Shown: piece after piece, positions 24,407 to 39,368 of the stretch
Numbering within the stretch: the first letter of the stretch is position 1
Layout: each line of letters starts with the position of its first letter
Assembly (NCBI GenBank): GCA_038861545.1
Contig: JAWCCZ010000001.1
Coordinates: 480,001-544,000 of the forward strand
Length of the DNA stretch: 64,000 nt
Source of the DNA: Thermofilaceae archaeon
GTDB taxonomy: Archaea > Thermoproteota > Thermoprotei > Thermofilales > Thermofilaceae
Direction: 5' to 3'
The notes under the pieces: generated by a model
What the model saw: only the letters and a program-made list of their open reading frames with translations
The model's database searches: none
Told to the model about the DNA's origin: nothing
Translations under genes and position numbers: made by a program

Positions 24407-25996
24407 ATGGCGAAGGTTATGAAATCGCCGAAATATGTGATGGCGGTAGATCAAGGCACAACTGGGACCAGAGTGATGCTTTTCACGAGGGATGGTTTAC
24501 CAGTTCAAGGTGGATGGGCTTACCGCGAACATAGACAAATCTACCCCCGCCCCGGCTGGGTTGAACATGATCCAATGGAAATATGGGAGAACACGAAGCT
24601 CTGCATGAAAGAGGCTTTAGAGAAGGCTCGAGTAGACCCAAGGAACCTAGCAGCTATAGGTGTTACGAACCAGAGGGAGACGATAGTGGTATGGGATCAG
24701 CGCACAGGTAAACCTGTTTACAACGCTATCGTGTGGCAAGATAGGCGGACAGCCCCCTATGTGGATTACTTAAAAGGATACTATGCTGAAGTAGTAAAGT
24801 CGAAGACTGGATTAGTTCCCGACCCTTACTTCTCCGCAACTAAGGTTTGGTGGCTCTTGGATAATGTGCCGAACCTGAGGGAAAAAGCCTCTAAAGATGA
24901 CGTGCTAATCGGTACTATTGACACGTGGCTTGTATGGAACCTAACGCGTGGAGCTAGGGATGTACAGACACCAGAGAAAGGAGGAGCACACGTCACTGAC
25001 TACTCAAACGCGTCTAGAACTATGTTGTTCAACATATGGTACCTTGAGTGGGATGATGAGTTGTTAGAAATTAACGGTAAAATCCCGAAGGAACCCCTTC
25101 CAGCTCCGAGACCTTCAAGCGATAAGGCAGTTTACGGTTACACGGGACCTGAAGTTGCAGGCTTGCTTAGTGGAGCAAGTGTGCCAGTCACTGGTGATGC
25201 CGGTGATCAGCAGGCAGCGCTATTCGGTCAAGCCGGTTTCTCAGAGGGGGATATGAAGTGCACGTACGGGACTGGTAATTTCCTACTGATGAATACGGGC
25301 AGCAGGATCGTGGAATCGAGGCATGGTTTACTCACCACGGTATTCTATAGCCTTGAGCCTGGGAAGGCCACGTACGCTTTAGAGGGTAGTATCTTTGTCA
25401 CAGGTGCTGCTATACAATGGTTGAGGGATGGTTTAAAGATCATCGAAGTCTCTGCTGAGGTGAACCCGCTAGCTGAAAGCGTATCGGACACAGGCGGAGT
25501 TTACTTTGTCCCGGCGTTCGTGGGTTTAGGGGCGCCATACTGGGATCATTACGCTAGAGGGGTAATAGTGGGGATAACTAGGGGAACAGAGCGCAAGCAC
25601 TTAGCGCGAGCAGCACTGGAGTCTATAGCTTACATGACTCGAGACGTTGTGGAAGCAATGACTGCAGACACAGGCTTAAAACTCGATGTCTTAAAGGCGG
25701 ATGGAGGCGCAGCGAAAAGCGATTTCCTGCTTCAGTTCCAGGCGGATATCCTAGGTGTTAGGGTCGTAAGGCCGGTGGTTTGGGAGACAACGTCCTTGGG
25801 TGCCGCTTACTTAGCGGGGTTAGCGGTTGATATGTGGGACGGTATAAGCGAATTACGGGGTAACTGGAAGGCGGAGAGAGAGTTCAACCCATGGATGGAC
25901 GCAGCTACGAGGGATAGGCTTTATGAGGGGTGGAAGGCCGCGGTGAAGAGGGCTCTCGGCTGGGCGAAAGAGGTACCTTGGGCATATGGGTACTGA
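24407..25996 (+). CDS. glpK: Glycerol kinase
   Basis: [55 protein letters not shown]. Confidence 0.96.
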
Positions 25997-27497
25997 GGCT
26001 GGTGACGTGAAGCTGAAAGTAGCTATTATTGGAGCTGGTGTAGTGGGGGCTTCGATAGCCAGAGTACTCAGCATGTACGAAAATTTCGATGTAATCCTAC
26101 TGGAGCGAGAACCGGATGTGGGCTGGGGTGCGAGCAAGGCTAACACGTCTGTTATTCACCCGGGTCATGAGGAGGATCCAAGAAAGCACCCGATTAGAGC
26201 GAAGCTCTGCGTGGAGGGTAACCAATTATGGAGGAAGTGGACTGAGGAGCTCGATATCCCGGCTAGATGGCCAGGGGAGCTGATGCTTTTCTACAGTAAT
26301 GAGGAAGTTAAACGAGCTGCAGAGTACGTGGAGTTTGCCAGGCTTAACGGTGTACCCGGCGTTAAAATAGTGTGGGAGGAGGTTAAGCAGATTGAGCCGT
26401 GGGTTAACCCGAGCACAACTGGAGCGATTTACGCGCCAACCGCTGGCTTGGTATCTCCCTTCGAAGCTGTCGCTGCTATAGTGGAGAACGCTGTAGGAAA
26501 TGGAGTCAGGCTTCTAGCGGATACTGAGGTAAACGGAATCAAGGTTTCCGGCGGGGAAATAAATGGCGTGGAAACTGGTAGGGGGTTCGTGGAAGCTGAT
26601 TTAGTAATTAACGCTGCGGGTTTATGCGCGGATCGTGTTTCACACATGGCTGGTGTAGAGCTGGGGTTCAGGATAAAACCTAGAAGGGGGGAGTACCTTC
26701 TTTTTGATGAGAATGTGCATGTTAAACCGCGCATGATCCTGCATCCAGTCCCTACACCTATTACTAAAGGCGTCTACGCCATAACCACGGTTCATGGTAA
26801 CCTAATGCTCGGCCCTACAGCTGATGATCTACCCGAGGAAGAGAAAAATAATCTTTCGACTACAGGGGAGGGCCTTTCTCGCGTGATAGAGGAGGCTTCA
26901 AAGTTGTTAAAAGAGATTCCACCCCATGATAAGGTGATCAGGTTCTTTACAGGTTTAAGGCCGGAGCCTCCCCATGGCGAATGGTTGATTAAAGCCTACA
27001 ACGACCCTTGGGGTTTCGTCAACGTAGCCGGTATTCGATCTCCCGGTTTAACAGCTGCACCGGCTATTGCCAACTATGTTTTAGAGCTCATAGTCAGGGA
27101 ATATGATGTAAAGCTAAATCGTAAACTTTTGTGGAACCCTTACAGGGTGAACGTAACCAGTGTTAGGGGAAAAAACATAGAAGAAATGGATCAGCTAGTG
27201 AAAGTAAACCCGGACTATGGAGAAATCGTTTGTCGTTGCAGGTTAGTGTCCAAAGCTGAAATTATTGAAGCCATTGAAAGGATGAGGAAGATAGGGCTTG
27301 AGCGGATAACTGTTGATGGAGTTAAATTTAGGACTACGGCTGGAATGGGCTGGTGTCAAGGGCAGTTCTGCAGGTGGAGGATATCGCTTATTATCTCACA
27401 GGCCACCGGCATTCCGCTTTACGAGGTAGCTGTTAAGCGAGCAAGCTACGGTATAGGGGATGTAAAGGTTCTGCTTAAAGGTGGAAACATTTGCTAG
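25986..27497 (+). CDS. FAD-dependent glycerol-3-phosphate dehydrogenase (GlpA-like, C-terminal BFD-like Cys cluster)
   Basis: [31 protein letters not shown]...[10 protein letters not shown]; follows glpK. Confidence 0.85.
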
Positions 27498-28741
27498 AGC
27501 TAAAGTTCGACTTGGTTGTGGTTGGAGGCGGTCCAGCCGGAATCGCTGCAGCCTCGAAAGCCTGTGAGCTGGGCATGAAAGTAGGGTTAATTGAGAACAG
27601 GGAAGTCCTCGGAGGAATCCCATTACAGTGTGTTCATTCAGGTTTTGGTGTGCATATTTTTAGGGAGGATTTAACAGGGCCAGAGTTCATCTATAGGCTC
27701 ATTGATCGGCTTCAACGCACAGATGTTAAACTTCTCCTGAGATCTTATGTGCATTCGATTGAGTTGAAGGCTTTCGACGAGAAGATTGTCACGGTATTTT
27801 CGCCGAATGGGGTTCAAAGGCTATACGCTAAGGCGATTGTGCATTCAACAGGTGCGCGGGAGAGGACGATATTCGAAATAGGCGTAACTGGCGAAAGGCC
27901 AGATGGAGTGTACACCGCTGGGGAGGCTCAGACGATGATGGATTTGTACGGCTTGATGCCGGGTCGAAAGGTAGTTATCATTGGATCCGGTGATGTGGGC
28001 TTAATTATGGCTAGAAGGTTCGCGCTTGAAGGTGCCGAAGTGAGAGCTGTAATCGAGGTGCTTCCCTACCCGGGTGGATCTATGCGGAATGTAGTCAGCT
28101 GCCTCCAGGATTTCGGGATACCGCTTTACCTAAACCATGCTGTGGTCTCCCTCTATGGTAGAAAGAGAGTTGAGAAGGTAGTTGTAGCGAAAGTTGACAG
28201 CGAAATGAAGCCTATACCGGGTACGGAGTTCGAAGTAGAGTGTGATGTAGTCGTAGTGGCCGCCGGCTTAAGACCTAACATGGAGCTGTTGGAGAGGATG
28301 GGTGCAGTTCTCGATCCAGCTACAGGGGGGCCAGTCGTTAATGAAATGCTCGAAACAACGGTTCCTGGAGTCTTCGCGGCCGGCAATGCGTTAGTTGTAA
28401 ACGACTTAGTAGATTATGCTGTTGAGCAGGGTGAAAGGGCTGCTGAAGGCGTTTACGAGTTCATCAGCAACTGTTCTAAAAGCGCTGCGTGGAAGAAGGT
28501 AATAAAAGGTAGAAATGTGAGGTTGATTATACCTCACTACGTCAGCGGTGAACGAGACGTTATATTTTACGCGAGGGTTAAGAACCCTGAAAGAAAGGTT
28601 TTCTTTGAGCTACTCGGATCTGATTTGAAGTTGTACCAGCAGGGCGTCAGACCTTCAGAGATGGTTAGGTTTAAAGTTTCTTCATCAATTATATCCAGCT
28701 TAGGTGATAAACTACTCTTCCAGGTGAGGCCGCTTGAGTGA
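27491..28741 (+). CDS. NAD(P)/FAD-dependent oxidoreductase (partner of GlpA-like)
   Basis: VVGGGPAG, QCVHSGFG, TGARER, GSGDVGLIMARR, GVFAAGN. Confidence 0.88.
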   Translation: MLELKFDLVVVGGGPAGIAAASKACELGMKVGLIENREVLGGIPLQCVHSGFGVHIFREDLTGPEFIYRLIDRLQRTDVKLLLRSYVHSIELKAFDEKIVTVFSPNGVQRLYAKAIVHSTGARERTIFEIGVTGERPDGVYTAGEAQTMMDLYGLMPGRKVVIIGSGDVGLIMARRFALEGAEVRAVIEVLPYPGGSMRNVVSCLQDFGIPLYLNHAVVSLYGRKRVEKVVVAKVDSEMKPIPGTEFEVECDVVVVAAGLRPNMELLERMGAVLDPATGGPVVNEMLETTVPGVFAAGNALVVNDLVDYAVEQGERAAEGVYEFISNCSKSAAWKKVIKGRNVRLIIPHYVSGERDVIFYARVKNPERKVFFELLGSDLKLYQQGVRPSEMVRFKVSSSIISSLGDKLLFQVRPLE

Positions 28742-29135
28742 GGTAACGCTTATATGTATAATCTGCCCAGCTGCCTGCGAGCTTAAGGCTGTTTTGCTAC
28801 CGAATGATGAAACGCGGGTAGAGGGTGCAGGGTGCGCTAGAGGAGTAGAGTACGCCAAGCAAGAAGTGCTTAACCCGAGGCGGATGATAGTAACGGTAGT
28901 TAAGGTTAAAGGGGGCGATCTCCCAGTGGTTTCAGTTAAAACGAGTCAACACGTACCGAAGAGTCGCATCGCAGAGATCATGAGAACTACAGCGGAAGTC
29001 GTAGTCGACGCGCCAGTTGAGATTGGGCAAGTTGTAGCAATGTGCCCGGGGGGTGTAGAGCTTATAGCTACGAGGCGAGTAAAAGCCTTAGCCGATCAAA
29101 GGGCCTTGGGAAAGCTGTACGAGAACACAAGTTAA
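28734..29135 (+). CDS. DUF1667 family small Fe-S/Zn protein
   Basis: CIICPAAC...GAGCARGVEYA..E..NPRR, VSVKT; usual third gene of this glycerol operon. Confidence 0.85.
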   Translation: MSEVTLICIICPAACELKAVLLPNDETRVEGAGCARGVEYAKQEVLNPRRMIVTVVKVKGGDLPVVSVKTSQHVPKSRIAEIMRTTAEVVVDAPVEIGQVVAMCPGGVELIATRRVKALADQRALGKLYENTS

Positions 29136-29148
29136 TATATTCCTAAAG

Positions 29149-29514
29149 TTAACTGGCACTTTTCACTGAATCCTCAATCTGCTTAGTGTATTTGTCGAGT
29201 AAGTAGTATATTAGACCTAGATTCGGGTTACTCTTAGATACGAGGCATATTACGCCGTTTTTCAGTTCTCTCAGCATAACGATTCTGCCATCTTCTAACT
29301 CAACAACCACGTCCCTAACACCAGTGCTGAAATACTGTCTAAAAGCCTCTCCCACGCCTGCTACTACAGCTGCTCCAAGCGCTGCTACTATGTCATCGAT
29401 ATCTGACGGATTTGAAGCAGCTATGGTAACCCCATCAAGAGTTGCTAGCACCGCGCGCTCCAGCTCACCCATACTTCTTTTTACCAGTTCCCCGAGAACT
29501 GTTTCAACACTCAT
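29149..29514 (-). CDS. Roadblock/LC7 (MglB-like) protein
   Basis: AVLATLDGVTIAAS, VAALGAA, VVVELEDGRIV, NLGLI. Confidence 0.88.
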   Translation of the reverse strand: MSVETVLGELVKRSMGELERAVLATLDGVTIAASNPSDIDDIVAALGAAVVAGVGEAFRQYFSTGVRDVVVELEDGRIVMLRELKNGVICLVSKSNPNLGLIYYLLDKYTKQIEDSVKSAS

Positions 29515-29837
29515 CTGAGCACCACCCTGTACACCCCGTCTTCCTGAGGCGTTACTTGTAACTCGTTTTCCCCTATACGTACTCTAAGCTCGCTAAGTCC
29601 TCCAGCTTCCTCGAAAACCTTTACTGCTTGAACAGCGTACACGGCTAACATTTTATCCACTTGCCCCTGCGCTTCCACCACTAGCCCCCTCTTATCGACC
29701 AGTGCCGCCCACTTATACCGCCCTTTATCCTTTTTCTTCCGCGACTTTAAGATAACTATAGCCAGCACCACTGCTACAACCACGATAGCGGCTGCAGTAG
29801 CTGTAAGCATGAGCATGGAGCCTGTTAACGGCATCAT
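29511..29837 (-). CDS. Single-TM membrane-anchored Roadblock-like protein
   Basis: N-terminal TM, basic stop-transfer KSRKKKDK, then AALVDKRGLVVEA (Roadblock beta-hairpin motif). Confidence 0.55.
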   Translation of the reverse strand: MMPLTGSMLMLTATAAAIVVVAVVLAIVILKSRKKKDKGRYKWAALVDKRGLVVEAQGQVDKMLAVYAVQAVKVFEEAGGLSELRVRIGENELQVTPQEDGVYRVVLR

Positions 29838-29891
29838 CGAAAATGATTACAAACTCAGTAATTTAAAGATGTTCCTTAAAGTATTACCCCA

Positions 29892-30488
29892 GTGTTACGA
29901 ACCAGTGCATTAAATATAAAACCCACCAGTAAAGAGATTATCGCGGGGAAAAGGTTGCAGGACACGGAGACCGTGCTCATCGCCGGCCCTTTTGGAGCTG
30001 GGAAGACTACATTCATACGCACTGTCAGCGGTAAGTCGATTACTACGGACAGGGAGCTAAGTGGCATAGGCGTTAGCGCTGGAGAAGTCAAGCTAAAGGG
30101 CTCTACAACCGTTTTCGCTGACATGGGTGTCGCTGAGCTGGATGGGAGGAAGCTCCTCCTCTACGGGGCTCCCGGTCAAGTTCGTTTTAGCTTCACGGTT
30201 AAAGGGCTGGCGTCACGCTGTAAGTATCTAGTTTTCCTCGTGGACACAACAGATGAAGCAGCTGTTATGAGGAGTAGGCTGTATTATGAGCGACTCATAA
30301 AACCCTATTTTGATCGTTTTACAAGTAAGGTCTTCGCACTAAATAAGAGAGATACATCGAAGCTTCCAATCATGAGGGTGTTGGAGTTATTCGGATCCAT
30401 GAATTGCCCTTTTGTCGAGCTTGTTGCGCTGGATAAGGGCTCTTGTCTTACTGCGTTAAGGATTCTTCTAGGAGGTGAAGGGGTATAA
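29892..30488 (+). CDS. MglA/CvnD-like small GTPase (start possibly TTG at 29955)
   Basis: G1 GPFGAGKT, TTVFADMG (MglA-type TTVxxDxG), YGAPGQVRF, G4 NKRD. Confidence 0.88.
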   Translation: MLRTSALNIKPTSKEIIAGKRLQDTETVLIAGPFGAGKTTFIRTVSGKSITTDRELSGIGVSAGEVKLKGSTTVFADMGVAELDGRKLLLYGAPGQVRFSFTVKGLASRCKYLVFLVDTTDEAAVMRSRLYYERLIKPYFDRFTSKVFALNKRDTSKLPIMRVLELFGSMNCPFVELVALDKGSCLTALRILLGGEGV

Positions 30489-30496
30489 TAGAGAGG

Positions 30497-30832
30497 TTGA
30501 AGAATATTTTCAGAGAGAGACGGGGAAAGCGGTATTCTTTTCCCACCACTGTGGTGGCAGGAGATTATGAAGTTATGGGTTCCGCTTTAACTATTGAGGA
30601 GGTAAGCGAGGACATGGAGCTGGCAGATGCATTAAAGCCCTTTGCAGCGATGAGTTCAGATTCGCCTGTACTGGTGATAGCGATAGGCAAGGGTTGGAAG
30701 GTTAAGCTAGCGGTGAATAAAGGTCTAGTGGAGATCGTGGAAGTAGAGGGAATAAACGCTGATAAGGCGATTTTCATGCGGGGGCCAGCTATTGTTCTTC
30801 CGTTCCCGGCTAAGGCTTTACGGCGGAAATAA
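30497..30832 (+). CDS. Small hypothetical protein, possibly PATAN/DUF4388-like
   Basis: Helix plus beta pattern VLVIAIGKGWKVKLAVNKGLVEIVE; directly downstream of the GTPase. Confidence 0.4.
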   Translation: MKNIFRERRGKRYSFPTTVVAGDYEVMGSALTIEEVSEDMELADALKPFAAMSSDSPVLVIAIGKGWKVKLAVNKGLVEIVEVEGINADKAIFMRGPAIVLPFPAKALRRK

Positions 30833-31586
30833 GCGTAAGGAGGGGTCCTCTTCTGAACCTAACGGATCCAAACCTCTCCCCTTCAATATAACTTCTTACT
30901 AACTCAGCCGACCAGGTGCCGGCCGTGCTCCCTAAAGCCACAAGAAACGGGGTTATCGGGTTAGCCCCTTCCCACTCGAGCGGTGCTATCATTATAAACT
31001 GGCCTCCCGGTGAAAGTGCAGCGGAAGCCCTGGAGATCAACGGCATCGGCTCATACAGCCAGTTTGAGGGTGAGGCGATGATGATGGAACCTATTGGCTC
31101 GCTCAAATGCCTTAGGAAGCTTGCATAATCCCCTTTAACTAAGAGGTAGTTAGAATTCCCTATACCCCTTAACCTTTCCTCTGCTATTGCGAGGTTGATG
31201 TCTGAGGGGTCTACCGCTATAAGCCTGCTCCACAGCTTGGCTGCATACTCCAAGCTCACAGCCGGTCCGCAGTGCATGTCTACTAAAGCCCCCTCCCTCC
31301 TCCTCGAGGCTGATAACCCGCCCCACAAAAGGTCGGTGAACTCCTTGGATTGCATCAAGGCTTCCGAGAACAATGCAAAGTCCGGCGTATCCCAGGGTTT
31401 CTCACCCCGTATTAGAGGAACTCTTTCAGCGAGGAATTTGAAAACTTTAAGTAGGTAAGGATCTGGGAGCCCCTCCCCCGCTTTAACTGAAGCCGTAATC
31501 TGTCGGACACTCTCAGATTCGCGGATCCCAGCTGTTGATTTAACAAGATCCCTTAATGCCTCGTAAACGGATCTCCAAGCGCTCAT
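30810..31586 (-). CDS. Class I SAM methyltransferase-like protein (degenerate motif I)
   Basis: LVDMHCGPA, LIAVDPS..NL, LLVKGD, ALSPGGQFIM. Confidence 0.75.
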   Translation of the reverse strand: MSAWRSVYEALRDLVKSTAGIRESESVRQITASVKAGEGLPDPYLLKVFKFLAERVPLIRGEKPWDTPDFALFSEALMQSKEFTDLLWGGLSASRRREGALVDMHCGPAVSLEYAAKLWSRLIAVDPSDINLAIAEERLRGIGNSNYLLVKGDYASFLRHLSEPIGSIIIASPSNWLYEPMPLISRASAALSPGGQFIMIAPLEWEGANPITPFLVALGSTAGTWSAELVRSYIEGERFGSVRFRRGPLLTLISAVKP

Positions 31587-32368
31587 CCAGCCACCTCTTC
31601 GAACCTTATAATCCCTCTTCTCTCTAAAGCTAAGATTCCGCTAAACCTTTCTCGCATAGTAACTGGGTCTTGCGCCAGAACCGCGTCAACAAGCCTCCAA
31701 CCGTCTAAGCCAGCGGCCCAATCTATGATCCTGGGCGATATCCAGGGTAAACGGTTTACATACTCCTTGAAAAGTGCTACGGCACCAGTGTCGACTTTCA
31801 CTACAAGTTTCCTTGATTTGAATGCTAACTCGAAAAGTCTTACCATAAAGGGGGAAGGTTGAGTGCTGATGCTAGCGTCGAGGAGCAGCGTGGAAAGCAG
31901 TATCGTGCCAAGGTCTGCTGTAGGCACTTTAGCCAAGCCTTTAAGGTACCCTCTAGCCCACTCAACGGCTGTTTTCGCCAAATCGAGATTCGAAAGCTCA
32001 AGCTCAAGCTCCGAATTTTCCTCGGAAATCTTAAGCGCGGTACCCATACTCCTCCTGTAGCACTCAATCATACCTCCACCGGTTGAGAGCCTGAAACCGT
32101 TGATGTGACTCATATAATTCAAGTAAGCCGGATTAACCCTAAGTGTCTCGCCTTTCTGTAGAGTTCTGAAAACTCTAATCCCTCTATCATGTCCCTCAGC
32201 GTCAACATATACGACAAAGACATGGTCACCATGATAGTCTGCAACACCTACTAAGCCGGTAGGGCTAGATAGAGCTGCCGTCAACGTAGTTGCGTCTAGT
32301 ACGAACTCTACACCCTTCCCGCAATCTGGACACGTGAGCTTTAAGACACGGACAGCTCTTGTGGCCAA
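31583..32368 (-). CDS. Zn-finger (CxxC...HxxH) protein with C-terminal wHTH-like end
   Basis: CPDCGK...YHGDHVFVVYVDAEGHDRG; C-terminus ILALERRGIIRF. Confidence 0.6.
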   Translation of the reverse strand: MATRAVRVLKLTCPDCGKGVEFVLDATTLTAALSSPTGLVGVADYHGDHVFVVYVDAEGHDRGIRVFRTLQKGETLRVNPAYLNYMSHINGFRLSTGGGMIECYRRSMGTALKISEENSELELELSNLDLAKTAVEWARGYLKGLAKVPTADLGTILLSTLLLDASISTQPSPFMVRLFELAFKSRKLVVKVDTGAVALFKEYVNRLPWISPRIIDWAAGLDGWRLVDAVLAQDPVTMRERFSGILALERRGIIRFEEVAG

Positions 32369-32874
32369 TTTCCCACCCCCGATAGAAACTCAGCTAGGGC
32401 AAGGAAGGGGACATCCGTATTAGCTCCATCTTTAGCTGAAGTTTCAAAATAAGCTAGAAAACCTCTTCGCGTTGCATAATCTTCTGCCCGCTCGCGTGGA
32501 ATAACCCTATAAGTTGTCATATCCACCTTGTTTCCAACAAGGACGCGCGGTAAATCACCTACCACGTCAAGAACCACAGTAAGCCAGTCCTCTAAGTGCT
32601 CGAAAGTTTCCTCCCTCGTTACATCAAATACAAAAACAGCTCCTCTAGCGCCTTTCAGGAACACTGGGGCGAGAAAGCGGAAACGCTCTTCTCCCCCTAA
32701 ATCCCATACTATAAGTTTAATCGGCCCGTCGTTAGTTGGCAACTCTCTCACGTGGTGGGAAACCCCAACTGTAAGTTTTTGCATTGGGTTGAAAGGGGAA
32801 CCAATGAACCTGCTGACTAAGCTCGTTTTTCCCACCCCGCCGTCCCCACACATAACAATTTTAAATGCCTTCAT
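32341..32874 (-). CDS. Rab-like (Ras superfamily) small GTPase
   Basis: G1 GDGGVGKTS, G2 LTVGV, G3 WDLGGEERF, FLKGA, FVFDVT, G4 NKVD, G5 ETSAK. Confidence 0.95.
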   Translation of the reverse strand: MKAFKIVMCGDGGVGKTSLVSRFIGSPFNPMQKLTVGVSHHVRELPTNDGPIKLIVWDLGGEERFRFLAPVFLKGARGAVFVFDVTREETFEHLEDWLTVVLDVVGDLPRVLVGNKVDMTTYRVIPRERAEDYATRRGFLAYFETSAKDGANTDVPFLALAEFLSGVGNWPQELSVS

Positions 32875-32879
32875 AGACC

Positions 32880-33251
32880 CTAGGGTGAAAGCACCTTACT
32901 TAAACGTTCTCCGGCGGACTCCGCCTGCCAAAGTGCATATCCGAGCTTGGATTCAGCACCGATCAGCATTACGAGCACGAAATCCCTACTCAGGCTCTTA
33001 ATTAACAATATCCCCTTATCGCTTTTAACCGCGAGGTATGCCATGCTACCCCCCCTGAGCTCCTTAATTACTTGCTCAGCCACGCCTTGGAGGGTTGCTG
33101 CCATCGCGGAGACTTTCAGTTCATCGGCTTCTTTCATAAGGGAAACCACCGGCATGCCGTCACTGGTGACAACCGCAACAGCATCTAGCCCTGGATTATC
33201 TTTCCGCATACCCTCCAGAATATCGTTTAGGGCCTCGTATCTACCCTTCAA
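32880..33251 (-). CDS. Roadblock/LC7 (MglB-like) protein
   Basis: AVAVVTSDGMPVVS, VSAMAATL, KLGYAL. Confidence 0.92.
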   Translation of the reverse strand: MKGRYEALNDILEGMRKDNPGLDAVAVVTSDGMPVVSLMKEADELKVSAMAATLQGVAEQVIKELRGGSMAYLAVKSDKGILLIKSLSRDFVLVMLIGAESKLGYALWQAESAGERLSKVLSP

Positions 33252-33364
33252 ACGGACCCCTAGATAAGGGTTAAATTACGGATTAAATATGTTTCGGTTG
33301 ATTAACCCATGTTAAATCAGCAACTGTCGATGTAATCAAGCGGGATTTACTTAAGGCCTGTTTT

Positions 33365-34339
33365 CTATGCTTTCAAGATAAAGGCGGGCGCCGGATGCCT
33401 CATTCGCTTTTCAATGCGCCATCCAGCGGTTTTAATCCAATCGTTTAACTGCTCCATCGTCGGCAGTATACTGGATCCCAGAAGGTAAGTTAAAGGAGCA
33501 AGCACCAGGCTAAGCTTCGTATCTAAGACTCCCTGAGTTAGCAAAGCGTTAGGTGTGACTTCTCTAACAGAGTTCAGAATTGTAAGTGGGTCGCTGCACC
33601 AGTGTAGAATGTTAATCATGACCGCGAAGTCAGCACTCTTAACAACCCTATGAATTTCCTCCCCCCTTCCCACTCTAACTTCTAACCTATCGCTTAGACC
33701 GAGAACCTCGGCGTAGCTCTTCGCAACTTCTAGGTTCGGCTGATAGGGGTCCACAGCGATTACGCGGCTACCCGGGACAAGCCTGAGAATCGTTATAGAT
33801 GAAAGCCCGATCCCTGCACCTACGTCCACGACCAACGAACCTGGCGGAATGTTCGCCCATTTTACTACTAGTTCCCTTAACCGATCGTAACCCAGGTTAT
33901 CTAAGAAACGCCCGAACACGGCTCTGCTTTCCGCTCCGGCTGAGCTGCGGGCCATAAACCTTTCTCCGCTCATCAGCGAGTCCGGGAGGGTAGCGTAAAC
34001 CCTGTCGATAACCGGCTTAAATGACACGAGATACCTGTTAGTTACTGGGGGAGGGTTACCAGATGTGCTTAGCCACTTCAACCTATCTGCCTCCCACCGG
34101 GCTAAGCCCTCGGCCTCCATTATGTCTCCGATAAGTTTAGCAAAACTCGGATCGGGGAACTCATGGAAAGGTTTTCTCTCCATCTCTTTATCGACCCCGG
34201 ATTCTTCCAGCACTTGACGCGCTTTCCAAACAGCGTACCGCTCAGTCTCTCTTACAGCTTGCAGCATCTCACGCCCCTCTTTGCTGCCGATCATCTTTAG
34301 CGTGAACGAGATAAAAGATAACTCCGGCATCCTAACCAC
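33365..34339 (-). CDS. Class I SAM-dependent methyltransferase with N-terminal helical domain
   Basis: VVDVGAGIG, VIAVDPY, ILHW. Confidence 0.85.
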   Translation of the reverse strand: MVRMPELSFISFTLKMIGSKEGREMLQAVRETERYAVWKARQVLEESGVDKEMERKPFHEFPDPSFAKLIGDIMEAEGLARWEADRLKWLSTSGNPPPVTNRYLVSFKPVIDRVYATLPDSLMSGERFMARSSAGAESRAVFGRFLDNLGYDRLRELVVKWANIPPGSLVVDVGAGIGLSSITILRLVPGSRVIAVDPYQPNLEVAKSYAEVLGLSDRLEVRVGRGEEIHRVVKSADFAVMINILHWCSDPLTILNSVREVTPNALLTQGVLDTKLSLVLAPLTYLLGSSILPTMEQLNDWIKTAGWRIEKRMRHPAPAFILKA

Positions 34340-34703
34340 CCTCAGGTTCTAGAACACCAAGCTTAAGCAGGGCTTCCACGGCTTTTCTCACCTCCGGCGT
34401 TAGTTCGCCTTCACCTCTTAACGCCGCGATAACCTGTTCTCTCATACGCTCTAGCATGGAAGGCCAGAGCTCCGGTCTCGCTAACCTAAGCCTTCCAGGT
34501 TTGTTCAAAGGTTCAGTAACCTCGATTGGCCGAATATCTCGTATATCTGCATTCATATCCGCGAGAATCAAAGTGTAGCCTCCGCATCCAGTGCACCGTA
34601 CAACTGTAGTTCCCTGCTTAACCTCAACCACGAGCGAGTTGTCACAGTGCGAGCACGGGATCTTAGCTATCCTGCCTTTTCCTCCAACTTCAACCACTTC
34701 CAT
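34332..34703 (-). CDS. Zn-ribbon (2x CxxC) protein with C-terminal wHTH-like end
   Basis: CSHC...CTGCGG, then ILADMNADIR; C-terminus VEALLKLGVLE. Confidence 0.65.
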   Translation of the reverse strand: MEVVEVGGKGRIAKIPCSHCDNSLVVEVKQGTTVVRCTGCGGYTLILADMNADIRDIRPIEVTEPLNKPGRLRLARPELWPSMLERMREQVIAALRGEGELTPEVRKAVEALLKLGVLEPEGG

Positions 34704-35028
34704 TATTCTCCCCCTCTTTTTTGAAAATTATTTTTAATTCCTCAAGCCAAAAATTAATGAAATTTTTATCATCGCGCTCAAAAGCGTTTAACAGCTCATC
34801 CGGCGGAACCCTGAACCCTCTCTCAGTCAGGATGCAAGCAACAAGTATGATAAACAACCTAGCATAGTCAAGGTCATTATCATATAAGCCAGCTAGCCGT
34901 TCCATAAACCTCCTAGGCGACTCTACAACCAGTGTATCAGGGTCACCCCACCCCTCTCTCTCAAACCCTCTTCTTACAAGCATTCCAGCCGGGTAAGCCA
35001 GGAAATCGAGAAGCTCAGTCAACCTCAT
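34690..35028 (-). CDS. Small helical protein, NitrOD5/DUF3227-like output domain
   Basis: ESPRRFMERLAGLY...ARLF pattern resembles the P..F...L..LFG family; assignment by eye only. Confidence 0.45.
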   Translation of the reverse strand: MRLTELLDFLAYPAGMLVRRGFEREGWGDPDTLVVESPRRFMERLAGLYDNDLDYARLFIILVACILTERGFRVPPDELLNAFERDDKNFINFWLEELKIIFKKEGENNGSG

Positions 35029-35029
35029 A

Positions 35030-36043
35030 TCACTTCACCTCTACCTCTTTCTGAAGTTTAACTACTTCACGTAGCAGGTACAGAAGCGGAGTAACTTTCA
35101 CGATGCCCGGTATCATTGTGAACTCTATCGCATCAATGTCCAGGTCACCTAGCGCTCTATACAATTCGGGCATTGCCGCACATGGTGGTTGGCCAGATAC
35201 CAAAGCCTTACTTAGGTCAATGTAAGCTGTGTGGAACCAAGGTAACTGAACCAATGTATTTGCAACAGCGTAAGCGTCTCTTCCTTCAACGTAAATCACC
35301 TTATACGGTGTGGAATCCAGCTTATCGTATACGCGTACCCTATTTCCCTCCCATAAATTAAGCAAATGATCTTTGAAATGTTTGCTAAGTACCCGGCGTG
35401 GAACTTTTTTCTCAAAGTATTTTTCGCTTTCTCTTTCAGCTTCTCTCATGGAAGAGAAAGGCCATTTAAACTTCATTGATAGAATTAAAAGGTCAACGTC
35501 ATCGAGTAGTATATTTTTCTCGGATAGGGAAAGCTGCGGCCCTCTCTCTTTTTCACCCTTTTGTAGATATATTTCAGGGATTTTCCCATACAGTTTTCCA
35601 TTCGTGTACATTGTTAGCTTAGATTTTGGACTCCACCATGCTCTTTTTACGGCTCTAACTACTAAGGCGTTATCCTCAAAGTTTGATAGCCAGTTTTCAA
35701 TAACTTCGTTTGCTACTGGCAATAGTCCAACGTAAAGGTAGTAACGACCTCCCATGATGCGCAGTTCCCTTGTAGACTCATAGTAAGGTAATTTTTCTAT
35801 ATACTTTTTACTGATAACTGCTATGTTTAAAAGTCCAGCTTTCTCCAGTTTTATTTCAAATCTTAAAGAAACATTTTTGGAAACATTAAATTGGGAGAGT
35901 AAACGGGAAACCGTGTATGGTGGTAAGCCGGATTTTTTCACCACTTCGGATATCGTAAGCGAATCTTCCACTGCTTGTATAACTTTCCATTCATCTTCTC
36001 TTATGTTAAGAAATGGGAAAAATTTTTCTGATATAGTCCTCAC
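35030..36043 (-). CDS. Tandem Lrp/AsnC-like HTH transcriptional regulator
   Basis: First HTH TISEVVKKSGLPPYTVSRLL...IKLEKAGL; second HTH LDDVDLLIL...VPRRVLSKHF..HL. Confidence 0.7.
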   Translation of the reverse strand: MRTISEKFFPFLNIREDEWKVIQAVEDSLTISEVVKKSGLPPYTVSRLLSQFNVSKNVSLRFEIKLEKAGLLNIAVISKKYIEKLPYYESTRELRIMGGRYYLYVGLLPVANEVIENWLSNFEDNALVVRAVKRAWWSPKSKLTMYTNGKLYGKIPEIYLQKGEKERGPQLSLSEKNILLDDVDLLILSMKFKWPFSSMREAERESEKYFEKKVPRRVLSKHFKDHLLNLWEGNRVRVYDKLDSTPYKVIYVEGRDAYAVANTLVQLPWFHTAYIDLSKALVSGQPPCAAMPELYRALGDLDIDAIEFTMIPGIVKVTPLLYLLREVVKLQKEVEVK

Positions 36044-36077
36044 CTGAATTTCTTTGTTTTGACCACTTATTTTTATC

Positions 36078-36233
36078 TTAAAGTGGGTCTATGTCAGGCG
36101 CAGGCACTCCTCCTGGCGGGGGTGGAGGCTCGGGAGCAACAATGCTCTTAGAAATTACGAACGCAGCTAGCGCAAGCACTAGCGCAAGCAGCTTCCACTT
36201 GTAAATTTTCAGTACGTATTTTATGGTTCTCAT
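36078..36233 (-). CDS. 51-aa hydrophobic, proline-rich micropeptide (not in ORF track)
   Basis: Manual translation MRTIKYVLKIYKWKLLALVLALAAFVISKSIVAPEPPPPPGGVPAPDIDPL*; basic N-region plus hydrophobic core; TTTAAGTA box 24 nt upstream; stop 34 nt before the next gene. Confidence 0.7.
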   Translation of the reverse strand: MRTIKYVLKIYKWKLLALVLALAAFVISKSIVAPEPPPPPGGVPAPDIDPL

Positions 36234-36264
36234 CAATAATTAGGTGAAAACTGTGATACTTAAA

Positions 36265-36318
36265 CTTTACGCCATTTTTGCAGTCACACATTGATATAGT
36301 TGCAAAAATGGCGTAAAG
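36265..36318. promoter_or_regulatory. Perfect 18-bp inverted repeat (18-nt spacer), candidate operator
   Basis: CTTTACGCCATTTTTGCA (36265-36282) and TGCAAAAATGGCGTAAAG (36301-36318) are exact reverse complements; the left arm abuts the minus-strand TATA box at 36257-36264. Confidence 0.8.
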
Positions 36319-36507: not shown

Positions 36508-37251
36508 GTGCGTAATTTTACCTTATCGGATTTCAGGGAGAGGGAGATTTTAAGAAAACTGGCCCACATTATCTTATCGCTCCTAATGATTATACCTCTC
36601 TCTCCGAAGTATAGTTTACCAATTACCGGCTTTGGGACCTTTGACAATGCTTTAACGACTTACACAGCAGCATTAGTTACAGTACTATTTGTTACGAGCT
36701 TACAGGTTAAAAAGCCAGAGCTGCGCGAGGCTATGCTTAGATTGTCAAGAGAAGCCAGAAAGTCGGTTTTACAACATCTCCGCGAGGTTATCCCGAATCA
36801 GGAACTAGTTGAAGGCGTGGAGCAGGCTTTAGATAGAGCTGAATCCGGTTTTCTCTCTATTATTGAATCTATTGAACGAGATTATGAGCGCAGGTACGGG
36901 TATATAGCGGCTGTTTGTGGTCTCACAGGTGTGACAGCGAGCTACATTTTTTTCGGTAGAGAAGCAACACTTCGGGGAATTCTCGCACTAGCGGTAGTGG
37001 ACCCGGTTGCATCAATAACTACGCTTTACTCTCCAGTTCAAGGTAGAATTTTAAAACATAATGTATTTTCGCCCTTCGCCTCTTTTCTAGTTTACTTCCT
37101 AATTTTGATAATTATGGGAGAGAGTATAATAACTGCCTTAATACTGGGGTTAGCTTCTTCAACTGTAGAGCTCCTATCTCTTGAGGATAACCTTACGTTA
37201 CCATTAGGTGCGGCATCACTATATATTCTCTGCGTGAAAATAGGGTTATAG
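36508..37251 (+). CDS. Dolichol/phytol kinase-like (CTP-dependent) membrane protein
   Basis: EILRKLAH, LAVVDPVASI, VELL..EDNLTLPL motifs. Confidence 0.7.
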   Translation: MRNFTLSDFREREILRKLAHIILSLLMIIPLSPKYSLPITGFGTFDNALTTYTAALVTVLFVTSLQVKKPELREAMLRLSREARKSVLQHLREVIPNQELVEGVEQALDRAESGFLSIIESIERDYERRYGYIAAVCGLTGVTASYIFFGREATLRGILALAVVDPVASITTLYSPVQGRILKHNVFSPFASFLVYFLILIIMGESIITALILGLASSTVELLSLEDNLTLPLGAASLYILCVKIGL

Positions 37252-37345
37252 GCGTTTTTACCGTAAATCAGCTCTCATGTTTCCTCGCTTTTCAGGCTTA
37301 GTAAACGTCATCATTAGGGATGCATTAAGGCTATTTCCCTTAGAG

Positions 37346-37639
37346 TTAGGCATCATCTATTGCGTTAGTTTTGGAGTGTTCCCTCAACTCTTTAATCCAA
37401 ATTCTCCATAAGAGGAATGTTATAATTATTAGTATTAGAGTGAGGAGAGTCGCTATAACGAAAAAAGAAGGGGCGAGCTCACCGGCGCCAATACATATCG
37501 GTATTGGGATGAAGATGCAGCCCACGATCCCTCTAACCGAGCCGGTACTTGCTAAGTAAATTACAGTCAAGACAACTAGCGCGAAGCCTGTTAATATTAA
37601 CGCGAAAGCGATTTTTTCTACTTGCATTATATCTCTCAC
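37346..37639 (-). CDS. DUF131-like small membrane protein
   Basis: GIVGCIFIPIPICIG; paralogue of the adjacent gene. Confidence 0.55.
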   Translation of the reverse strand: MRDIMQVEKIAFALILTGFALVVLTVIYLASTGSVRGIVGCIFIPIPICIGAGELAPSFFVIATLLTLILIIITFLLWRIWIKELREHSKTNAIDDA

Positions 37640-37899
37640 CTCAGTAACCAGCCGATCAGTAAGAATACCGCAACGCTGAACGCTGTGAAAAGGATAGCTA
37701 TGGCGATCAGCGACCTGGCAACTTTCTCACTGGTTCCGATGACTAAGGGTACCGGTCCTATTATCAGAACAGCCCCTCCTTCAATGCGTCTAGCATTCTG
37801 CACAGCTTTAAGCGTGGAAAGAAGTAGGAGGAGTACACCCGCTAATATTAGTATAAAAGCCGCTGTAAATAGCAATAAAGTTATGGGTACAGTCTCCAT
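37636..37899 (-). CDS. DUF131 family membrane protein
   Basis: EGGAVLIIGPVPLVIGT signature. Confidence 0.85.
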   Translation of the reverse strand: METVPITLLLFTAAFILILAGVLLLLLSTLKAVQNARRIEGGAVLIIGPVPLVIGTSEKVARSLIAIAILFTAFSVAVFLLIGWLLR

Positions 37900-37994
37900 A
37901 CAATAGCGAAATATTCTACAGCTTTATAATCTTTAACGCGCGTAGAAAGTTCAATGGAAATAGCTGTTAAACGCGGAAAAATTAAGGAAGGTTA

Positions 37995-39368
37995 CTATCT
38001 AAAGTGTTGAGCCATTTCCTTGTTCTCGGGAATTGAGAGGATGTTAGCGATAATCGAGTCGACTTGTTCGTTAGATTTAGTTCTCGGGTCGACGATAAGC
38101 CAATCGAATAGCAAATCTCTCCCTCCTTCGAGGAAAGCTTCTAGCGCCCATTCCATTCTTATCATCCTAGGCCAAATGACATGCTTCATAATACGTCTAG
38201 GCAACCGTAGACCATAAACCCTGCGAACTCCTCTTCCGTCAACGTAAGCCGGCACCTCTACGGCAACATCGTCAGGTATACTGACGATAGAGCCCTGGTT
38301 GGGTATGTTTACCTGGTACAACCCTCTTCTATCGTTTACCAGCGAATCCATTAATGGTGCTATCGATTCAAGGCTCCTTTTAGGTGGTAGCAAGTCAGTT
38401 AGAGGCGTTTTAACGTCAGCTGCAGCTTCCTTAAACATATCGACGGTTTTCGATTGCCAATCTAGGTATACTTTCCAGCCGATCTCGCTGTCAGGCCCTC
38501 CTGTAGGGCCAAACCATTTCTGCTTTGTTTTTAAATCCCAGTGGTACTTCCACGTACCGCCTCTAACGGCGTCGCCTACCGGGAACAACCCGTAAATTTT
38601 ATACATATCAACAGCTGCGGGCGACATCTGGATATCGAAGGGGTTCGCTTGATGTTCTCTCCATTTCCTCCAGTACTCCTCAGCTTTCTTTGTTATCCAT
38701 TCGTCGATTAACGGGTACGCATCCTCTCCCTTATACTCAAATCTTGTAAGCCAAATTACATGGTTAAACCCGATAGCTTCAAACTCCACCTTATCCGGAT
38801 CTAAGCCAAGTGCACCAGCAATTTCCCTGTAGCCGAGGTGTCCATGACAAAGCCCAATAACTTTTACTTTAGTTTTTCTGCTAATTAAGGTTGTTAACTC
38901 GAATACAGGGTTAGCCACTTGCAAAAGCCATGCCTCAGGGCTTAGGTCTTCGATGTCTCTCGCGATGTCCATTGCTAGTTTAAATTGATAGTAACCCCAT
39001 ATCGTGTGATAATCGGAAACCATGTTCCACTCTACGCTGTTGATCCCCCTATAGTAGCCATGCTTCTCCGATATTTCACGCATTTTCTCGTAGTATGAAT
39101 GGCCCATGGCCATCGCCGTATTTATGACGAAGTCTGCGCCCTCAATTGCTTTTTTCCTATCAGTTGCCACTTCAAACTTTAGGTCGGCTTTTACTTCCTT
39201 AGCATACCTTACCGCGAGCGAATGCACAAGCTTCAAGCGGTCCTCATTAATGTCCATCAGGTTGATTACGCTGCCATAAAGGCCAGGGGTGCAGCAAATA
39301 TCTCTAACAAGTGTAGCAGACCAAGCGACGCTGCCGGCGCCTATAACCGCTATTTTAGCTCCGGCCAT
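37995..39368 (-). CDS. NAD+-dependent alpha-glycosidase, GH4
   Basis: KIAVIGAGS, GADFVINT, ANP, GLCHGH, GFNH, NIPNQG. Confidence 0.92.
   Translation of the reverse strand: MAGAKIAVIGAGSVAWSATLVRDICCTPGLYGSVINLMDINEDRLKLVHSLAVRYAKEVKADLKFEVATDRKKAIEGADFVINTAMAMGHSYYEKMREISEKHGYYRGINSVEWNMVSDYHTIWGYYQFKLAMDIARDIEDLSPEAWLLQVANPVFELTTLISRKTKVKVIGLCHGHLGYREIAGALGLDPDKVEFEAIGFNHVIWLTRFEYKGEDAYPLIDEWITKKAEEYWRKWREHQANPFDIQMSPAAVDMYKIYGLFPVGDAVRGGTWKYHWDLKTKQKWFGPTGGPDSEIGWKVYLDWQSKTVDMFKEAAADVKTPLTDLLPPKRSLESIAPLMDSLVNDRRGLYQVNIPNQGSIVSIPDDVAVEVPAYVDGRGVRRVYGLRLPRRIMKHVIWPRMIRMEWALEAFLEGGRDLLFDWLIVDPRTKSNEQVDSIIANILSIPENKEMAQHFR

Follow-up and report, generated by a model that had tools for sequence, protein, structure and literature searches.

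Rab-like small GTPases have been reported in archaea; the described proteins include one from Thermofilum, carry RabF-like motifs and lack prenylation cysteines (PMC4915359, PMC10933270). No canonical regulators were found for them (Surkont and Pereira-Leal 2016, PMC4915359), and Asgard GTPases generally do not lie in operons with regulators (Tran et al. 2024, PMC10933270). Here we describe a 13-gene block in a 64,000-nucleotide stretch of DNA (the window) from G000, a metagenome-assembled genome of a hot-spring archaeon of the Thermofilaceae (1.63 Mb, 92% complete). In contrast to the reported cases, the Rab-like GTPase of this block has two partners fixed by operon structure, a zinc-finger (ZnF) protein, ZnF1, and a protein with a methyltransferase (MTase) fold, MT1 (module A). 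Comparison of gene neighbourhoods in related genomes delimits three further modules: an MglA-type GTPase with roadblock proteins (module B), a second ZnF–MTase pair, ZnR and MT2 (module C), and a small peptide with a tandem regulator and a helical protein (module D). We consider it rather probable that these four modules, which are joined only in this genus, were brought together in a lineage-specific manner and are read as at least four transcription units.

The MglA-type GTPase resembles those of MglA/MglB systems and actinobacterial conservons in the Thr that replaces the intrinsic Arg, the NKxD motif and the company of one or two roadblocks (Wuichet and Sogaard-Andersen 2015, PMC4316618). 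It differs from MglA/MglB in its G3 motif, GAPGQ, and has a membrane-anchored roadblock-like gene and ZnF–MTase partners instead. Unlike an actinobacterial conservon, the block encodes no CvnA-type histidine kinase; among its 13 proteins no histidine kinase or KaiC domain was matched, as a preliminary description of the block had noted. A short ZnF–winged-helix relative matches DUF742, which we take to be the CvnC family, weakly.

The SAMTOR–GATOR1–Rag–Ragulator pathway combines a methyltransferase-fold sensor, a regulator with alpha/beta and winged-helix domains, small GTPases and membrane-anchored roadblocks. By analogy the parts list of the block is similar, although the match to NPRL2 of GATOR1 (Z 6.5) is confined to a winged helix, and the GTPases of the block, in contrast to Rag/Ragulator, are Rab-like and MglA-like single-domain proteins of less than 200 amino acids (aa) with no fused C-terminal roadblock domain.

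RRNPP systems place a small gene with a signal peptide and a variable mature tail beside an intracellular DNA-binding protein of 250–500 aa (Bernard et al. 2023, PMC10075063); module D has a similar arrangement, with a putative signal peptide. Module D differs in being archaeal, in having a tandem Lrp-like receptor without TPR, and in its order, peptide then receptor. Of five RRNPP criteria, three are seen in module D, among them a propeptide of 10–100 aa, and the TPR is lacking (PMC10075063). By analogy, module D would work like an RRNPP peptide–receptor pair, but it is not an RRNPP system. The archaeal quorum signals described so far are not peptides: one is a carboxy-acyl-homoserine lactone, the other a small, protease-resistant molecule to which a two-component system responds (PMC12240190, PMC13464002).

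The Rab-like GTPase and its two operon partners

Module A is probably the ancient core of the block. The Rab-like gene is adjacent to ZnF1 in all 18 relatives that have it, in several unrelated genomic contexts, and overlaps or abuts it in each of them and in family f8. MT1 lies directly after ZnF1 in 25 of 25 other readable loci (17/17 within the family, 8/8 outside) from five families, and full-length ZnF1 is limited to five families of the class. The Thermofilum orthologue of the block Rab is the Rab-like protein already reported (PMC4915359). A 2.1-kb contig labelled Candidatus Jordarchaeia (L021:1-2130) carries the Rab (89% identical), ZnF1, MT1 and a partner gene that is otherwise genus-specific; it is probably a mis-binned Thermofilaceae contig and therefore provides no evidence for module A in Asgard archaea.

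The Rab-like protein aligns with its G1–G5 motifs intact and shares these and the Ras fold with eukaryotic Rab proteins, but lacks their catalytic Gln and prenylated cysteines, which places it among archaeal Rab-like proteins. Specifically, the catalytic Gln of G3 is replaced by Glu62, invariant in 17 sequences, and there is no prenylation site: the window protein lacks a C-terminal cysteine, and the alignment shows none conserved at the terminus. A GTPase without the catalytic Gln is expected to need residues supplied in trans, as argued for Rup group 1 (PMC4316618).

The model of ZnF1 (pLDDT 90) consists of a Zn finger, an alpha/beta middle domain and a C-terminal winged helix. The finger, of CxxC/HxxH type (C13, C16, H46 and H49), is followed by a conserved Asp-Gly-Arg hairpin, with D56 and G59 invariant and R62 and R65 nearly so. 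The best structural match of the winged helix is a recognition element of ribosomally synthesised and post-translationally modified peptides (RiPPs; Z 7.1), and the second is GATOR1 NPRL2. A Foldseek search with the whole model gave no PDB match and Atlas matches with a TM of only ~0.3, which is not proof of a new fold, and a search for NPR2 gave no match anywhere. The name 'truncated hemoglobin YjbI' that JGI gives to Thermofilum ZnF1 (P0024, P0125-P0137) is a misannotation, as the model is not a globin.

The model of MT1 (pLDDT 93) matches class I methyltransferases with a Rossmann fold. The glycine-rich motif I, however, is only partial in the window protein. In Thermofilum and Infirmifilum it has lost all its glycines, although both retain the gene at its usual position. 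With the S-adenosylmethionine (SAM) motif of a conserved gene lost in whole genera, methyl transfer is unlikely to be the conserved function, and MT1 is, judging by its motifs, probably a pseudo-enzyme serving as a non-catalytic sensor or scaffold. The preliminary description had proposed two methyltransferases and a methylation-based modulation of GTPases; both proteins do have class I folds, but the degenerate motif of MT1 makes such modulation doubtful.

Related arrangements occur with other GTPases. Three Thermocladium genomes have an operon of a Roc/Ras-like GTPase, a short ZnF–winged-helix protein and an MTase-fold protein, and in G055 a Rab paralogue stands beside a member of the same Zn-finger family; in all, three different GTPase types are found next to the Zn-finger family of ZnF1. 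The Thermocladium operon (L188:4319-6233), whose methyltransferase of 319 aa is degenerate, is an independent instance of the logic of this triad.

We infer that ZnF1–MT1 is an obligate pair acting as regulator or effector of a small GTPase, normally a Rab-like one. ZnF1 would act as adaptor, touching the GTPase and giving the catalytic help needed by a protein with Glu for Gln, and MT1 would most likely serve as a sensor of SAM or another metabolite, or as a scaffold, without catalysis. For the Rab-like GTPase of Thermofilum, so far an orphan, module A thus supplies candidate partners. That it is a SAM- or metabolite-sensing regulator working like SAMTOR–GATOR1 is an analogy that we regard as speculative and on balance unlikely.

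The peptide–regulator operon

The 52-aa peptide of module D has a basic N region, a hydrophobic core and a Pro/Asp-rich tail that ends in DIDPL, and the codons of the tail vary synonymously among orthologues. A peptide gene stands before the regulator gene in six families of the order; in the block, 34 nt separate it from the regulator (337 aa). Two independent searches tie the peptide to the regulator: with the peptide profile alone, six of seven new small-open-reading-frame matches lay directly upstream of the regulator family, and with the regulator alone, five of nine new scorable loci carried such a peptide. Furthermore, the same peptide filter passed only two of 867 large open reading frames (ORFs) in the genome, the block gene and a low-complexity ORF that we regard as noise. 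A second peptide gene in G041 (L208:1492-1686) has no regulator directly behind it and may be described as an orphan propeptide.

The regulator had been described as a tandem Lrp-like protein, which holds for its N half (84.7% against canonical Lrp over the helix-turn-helix (HTH) and first strand) and is weak for its C half (24.7%). PF01037 does not list the block regulator, and comparison of its N half with its C half was not significant. Among the Pfam matches of 19 members of the regulator family no TPR was found, and HTH and Lrp-like families appeared instead. Each genome carries one to eight paralogues.

The third gene of the module encodes a small helical protein with an Atlas structural lead to NitrOD5-like domains (TM 0.48–0.53). 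It has no PF11537 match over the cut-off, the gene in the equivalent position in G042 is over that cut-off, and the link between the two is weak (E 0.002). NitrOD5 and archaeal death-domain-like outputs are likewise small helical domains that stand alone among signalling genes (Galperin et al. 2018, PMC5847659), but the protein here is linked to a peptide–regulator operon and not to a receiver domain.

An inverted repeat precedes the peptide gene; all six orthologous loci keep its 11-bp core halves, whereas the 19–20-nt spacer diverges. This repeat pair is the only one in the genome, and the promoters of the two GTPase units contain no match to it with fewer than four mismatches. The half-site also precedes the peptide in a genome of family f3, and other repeats with similar spacing occur in f2, f3 and f4.

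These features fit an autoregulated peptide–receptor operon. The peptide would be exported and then clipped, and the neighbouring tandem Lrp-like regulator would sense its acidic, Pro-rich tail; the genome has genes for peptide ABC binding proteins. The regulator may in turn bind the inverted repeat and control, with either sign, the genes for the peptide, itself and the NitrOD5-like output. That Thermofilales use a peptide pheromone, with a tandem Lrp-like protein as its receptor, is a tentative reading, possible but short of even chances. The exported peptide cue and transcription factor of the preliminary description are in this way supported by gene pairing and operator, as a system of their own and not as part of a circuit spanning the block.

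Organisation of the block and the remaining modules

All 13 genes of the block are real. Their coordinates, strands and order were verified, with starts and stops that overlap or nearly abut, as first described, and the same-genus genome G002 has 11 of them in identical order up to the point where its contig stops within the helical gene, a conservation which itself shows that the genes are real. The features are collected in Table 1. Pfam assigns above cut-off two roadblocks, a Ras-family protein, an ATP_bind_1/MglA-type GTPase and two class I methyltransferase folds, and no family to the Zn-finger proteins, the helical protein, the 111-aa partner or the peptide.

Table 1. Features of the block, in window coordinates.
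Feature	Position	Strand	Evidence
RB_A, Roadblock/LC7 protein, 121 aa, module B	29149..29514	-	PF03259, 31.9 bits, over cut-off
TM_RB, N-terminal membrane anchor and probable truncated roadblock-like domain, module B	29511..29837	-	PF03259, E 0.031, below cut-off
Derived MglA-type (groups 2-5-like) small GTPase, module B	29892..30488	+	PF03029, motifs, long branch; PMC4316618
111-aa protein, genus-specific, no recognised family	30497..30832	+	present only in G000 and G002 among 120 genomes
MT1, class I methyltransferase fold, degenerate motif I, module A	30810..31586	-	model, motif alignment, synteny
ZnF1, Zn finger, alpha/beta middle domain, C-terminal winged helix, module A	31583..32368	-	motifs, model
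Rab-like small GTPase, module A	32341..32874	-	PF00071, E 6e-41; best PDB matches Rab11
RB_B, Roadblock/LC7 protein, first gene of the Rab transcript in genera g1, g2 and g8	32880..33251	-	PF03259, 47.9 bits; synteny; RNA cover
BRE/TATA-like promoter of RB_B-Rab-ZnF1-MT1	33282..33297	-	sequence; kept in G002; RNA depth higher downstream
MT2, class I methyltransferase, intact motif I, module C	33365..34339	-	Pfam; MT1 paralogue
ZnR, short Zn-finger protein, module C	34332..34703	-	homology to ZnF1 N-terminal domain, hhalign 90%, E 1.6e-6
Small helical protein, probably NitrOD5/archaeal death-domain-like, module D	34690..35028	-	structural lead; G042 gene in equivalent position
Tandem HTH/Lrp-like regulator, Thermofilales-wide family, module D	35030..36043	-	family search, profile comparison
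52-aa peptide, tail ends DIDPL, module D	36078..36236	-	orthologues in six families
TATA box of the peptide operon, leaderless start inferred	36257..36264	-	sequence; equal position in six orthologous loci
Inverted repeat, 18-bp arms, 18-nt spacer, abuts BRE/TATA; candidate operator of the regulator	36265..36318	.	core conservation

Modules A and D–C appear as separate transcription units. The 113-nt gap between MT2 and RB_B holds an element resembling a B recognition element (BRE) and TATA box, conserved in G002. Strand-specific RNA reads from a hot spring run without a break from RB_B to MT1 at a depth of 2–8, leave a 300-nt bin at the MT2/RB_B junction empty, cover MT2 to the peptide at a depth of 0.2–2 and leave module B uncovered. 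This pattern agrees with the promoter and synteny evidence and is suggestive of separate transcripts for module A and the peptide-to-MT2 genes; weighing against it, the depth is low, with 88 reads from one run and none from runs X2 and X3. Window positions 33296-33323, immediately upstream of the promoter of RB_B, hold a short, imperfect inverted repeat that G002 does not keep.

Module C is a paralogue of the ZnF1–MT1 pair, since ZnR is homologous to the N-terminal finger of ZnF1 and MT2 to MT1 (97.8% by profile comparison). ZnR precedes MT2-type genes away from Rab in G011 (twice), G012 and G014. The Gly-rich motif I of MT2 is intact, and many members of its family also have a decayed motif I; two solo MT2 paralogues in G000 (C1:443700-444818 and C2:225664-226668) have no Zn-finger partner. 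In this genus module D may have captured module C through translational coupling.

Module B is attached to module A in genera g1 and g8, and in family f3 an MglA-type GTPase likewise converges on ZnF1–MT1. In Thermofilum and Infirmifilum, module B is a separate roadblock-GTPase-roadblock operon far from Rab (a distance noted for Thermofilum), and RB_A is the orthologue of its first roadblock (tree support 98/96). The G3 motif of the GTPase is GAPGQ in g1 and g8 and GTPGQ in the other 14 relatives; with Thr for the Arg finger in G2, NKxD, a coupled roadblock and a long branch in the tree, the protein is by its motifs a derived member of MglA groups 2-5. No PDB sequence match was found for it, and its true start probably lies ~20 codons downstream, judging from relatives of 174–184 aa. 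Three roadblocks had been proposed for the block. RB_A and RB_B are secure, whereas TM_RB, although conserved in g1 and g8, is only a probable roadblock, below the PF03259 cut-off and at 0.2% in a profile–profile comparison. In 11 genomes a membrane-anchored coiled-coil protein with a C terminus that looks roadblock-like (L071:4861-5610) precedes the roadblock-GTPase-roadblock operon, and it occupies the same place relative to the operon as TM_RB before RB_A; profile comparison of TM_RB with the coiled-coil gene upstream of the Thermofilum operon was not significant. Module B would form an MglA/MglB-type switch, probably in the same pathway as module A, and may tether that pathway to the membrane.

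Other observations concern the partner gene, the roadblocks of related genomes and the flanks. A PATAN identity for the 111-aa partner is unsupported, with no PATAN/DUF4388 match. G004, which has no Rab or ZnF1 match, encodes a KaiC-small GTPase fusion adjoining a roadblock (L077:4817-6331). G015 has two additional near-identical roadblock copies (L067:5953-6891 and L069:6030-6940), of which the one tested adjoins a protoglobin, hinting at a haem or gas input to roadblock signalling. The left flank of the block (25986-29135; two FAD-oxidoreductase-like ORFs, judged by eye, and DUF1667) and the right flank (36508-39368; a membrane protein, a DUF131 gene and a family 4 glycoside hydrolase) are housekeeping and unrelated to it.

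Alternative readings and significance

The preliminary description had read the whole block as one circuit, in which the peptide cue would drive, through the regulator, a ZnR–MT2 pair acting on a two-GTPase switch, with the block co-regulated. The order of the genes and the D–C–A join are common to both genomes of the genus, overlapping stops and starts couple the peptide operon to ZnR–MT2, and ZnR–MT2, as a paralogue, could compete or pair with ZnF1–MT1. In addition, G055 has an independent operon of a tandem regulator of the same family directly upstream of ZnF1, MT1 and a roadblock (L178:6611-9804), without peptide or GTPase, which hints at a real link from D to A and so weighs against a purely modular block, although some such adjacency is expected when a genome holds between one and eight paralogues of the regulator. 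Outside this genus, however, the modules stand apart. The peptide, regulator and helical protein recur in G001, G010, G011, G013 and G014, neither adjacent to Rab nor with ZnR–MT2 next, so that across G001 and G010-G014 the loci of D and C are unlinked to Rab, and neither module was found in Thermofilum, which keeps A and has its MglA-type operon distant from Rab. Only D has the operator, which neither GTPase promoter contains, and the Rab unit has its own promoter, preceded by a gap in the RNA reads. Sub-blocks unlinked in relatives and not co-regulated were what the preliminary description had itself named as telling against a single circuit, and for the whole block this is largely what we find; a single circuit is improbable. 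What stands of it is a GTPase-roadblock-ZnF-MTase core, a conserved unit in two genera with partial links elsewhere, from which the rest of the block is separable. That a pheromone system feeds SAMTOR–GATOR1-like regulation of Rab through the captured ZnR–MT2 in this genus is a joined reading with slighter chances still.

Other explanations concern single modules. SecM and MifM are ribosome-arrest peptides that monitor secretion, and the peptide of module D might likewise act in cis, or be a membrane-retained micro-protein that tethers the regulator, a serious rival that we nevertheless hold to be somewhat unlikely. The signal-like N terminus, the Pro-rich tail reaching to the stop codon and the invariable position upstream of and co-oriented with the regulator (9–113 nt away in most loci) would suit it, but the ~20–25 residues from the hydrophobic core to the C terminus are short for force sensing, small-residue cleavage-like sites recur, tails differ by lineage and in some cases extend past the motif, the L208 gene has no regulator directly behind it, and the peptide operon has its own operator. 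Several facts tell against our own reading of module D: the signal-peptide shape of the orthologues (45–69 aa), including the cleavage-like region, was judged by eye and hydropathy, and many regulator paralogues, among them all those checked in Thermofilum, have no peptide, so that the family can work without one. It is highly improbable that the peptide is a RiPP precursor which winged-helix proteins recognise and MT2 methylates: MT2 has an intact motif and lies within the peptide operon here, and a RiPP recognition element is the best match of the ZnF1 C-terminal domain, but that match is to a generic winged helix, the leader resembles a Sec signal and in the other genomes no gene for a tailoring enzyme comes after the peptide operon. 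The proposed role of ZnF1 also has points against it, namely that residues 88–186 align only weakly to five longin chains (Z 4.0–4.5) with helix 1 absent in the model, that profile comparison of the middle domain with Asgard longin-like proteins and roadblocks was negative, that ZnF1–MT1 has no adjacent GTPase in G039, G040 and G041, and that ZnR–MT2 and Pyrobaculum Zn fingers occur without a GTPase alongside. A GTPase-independent unit, a metal- or SAM-linked regulator or nucleic-acid binder with GTPases as mere co-expressed neighbours, would account for the isolated pairs in families f2 and f12 and for the winged helix, but not readily for the contact of Rab with ZnF1 in every relative and in f8 or for the three GTPase types beside this Zn-finger family, and we think it has little chance of being correct.

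The component folds are all known, and the Thermofilum Rab-like protein had been noticed before. In the searchable literature, which does not cover most subscription journals, we found no description of a Rab-ZnF-pseudo-MTase unit, of a peptide-regulator-operator unit or, as the preliminary description had supposed, of the full architecture; nor did any match link Thermofilum or Thermofilales with roadblock or GTPase, or SAMTOR/GATOR1 with archaea, to these modules, and no report of archaeal cells signalling to one another by peptides came up in the searches. Modules A and D are thus apparently undescribed.

Which partners archaeal Rab-like GTPases have, and what these GTPases do, is a question that bears on eukaryogenesis, and in Asgard genomes, with their dozens of GTPases, regulators are not assignable from gene order (PMC10933270). 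In Thermofilaceae, including cultured Thermofilum and Infirmifilum, one Rab-like gene is locked to two partners, which turns that question into a three-protein biochemical one, and module D offers a candidate ligand, receptor and operator for peptide signalling in archaea.

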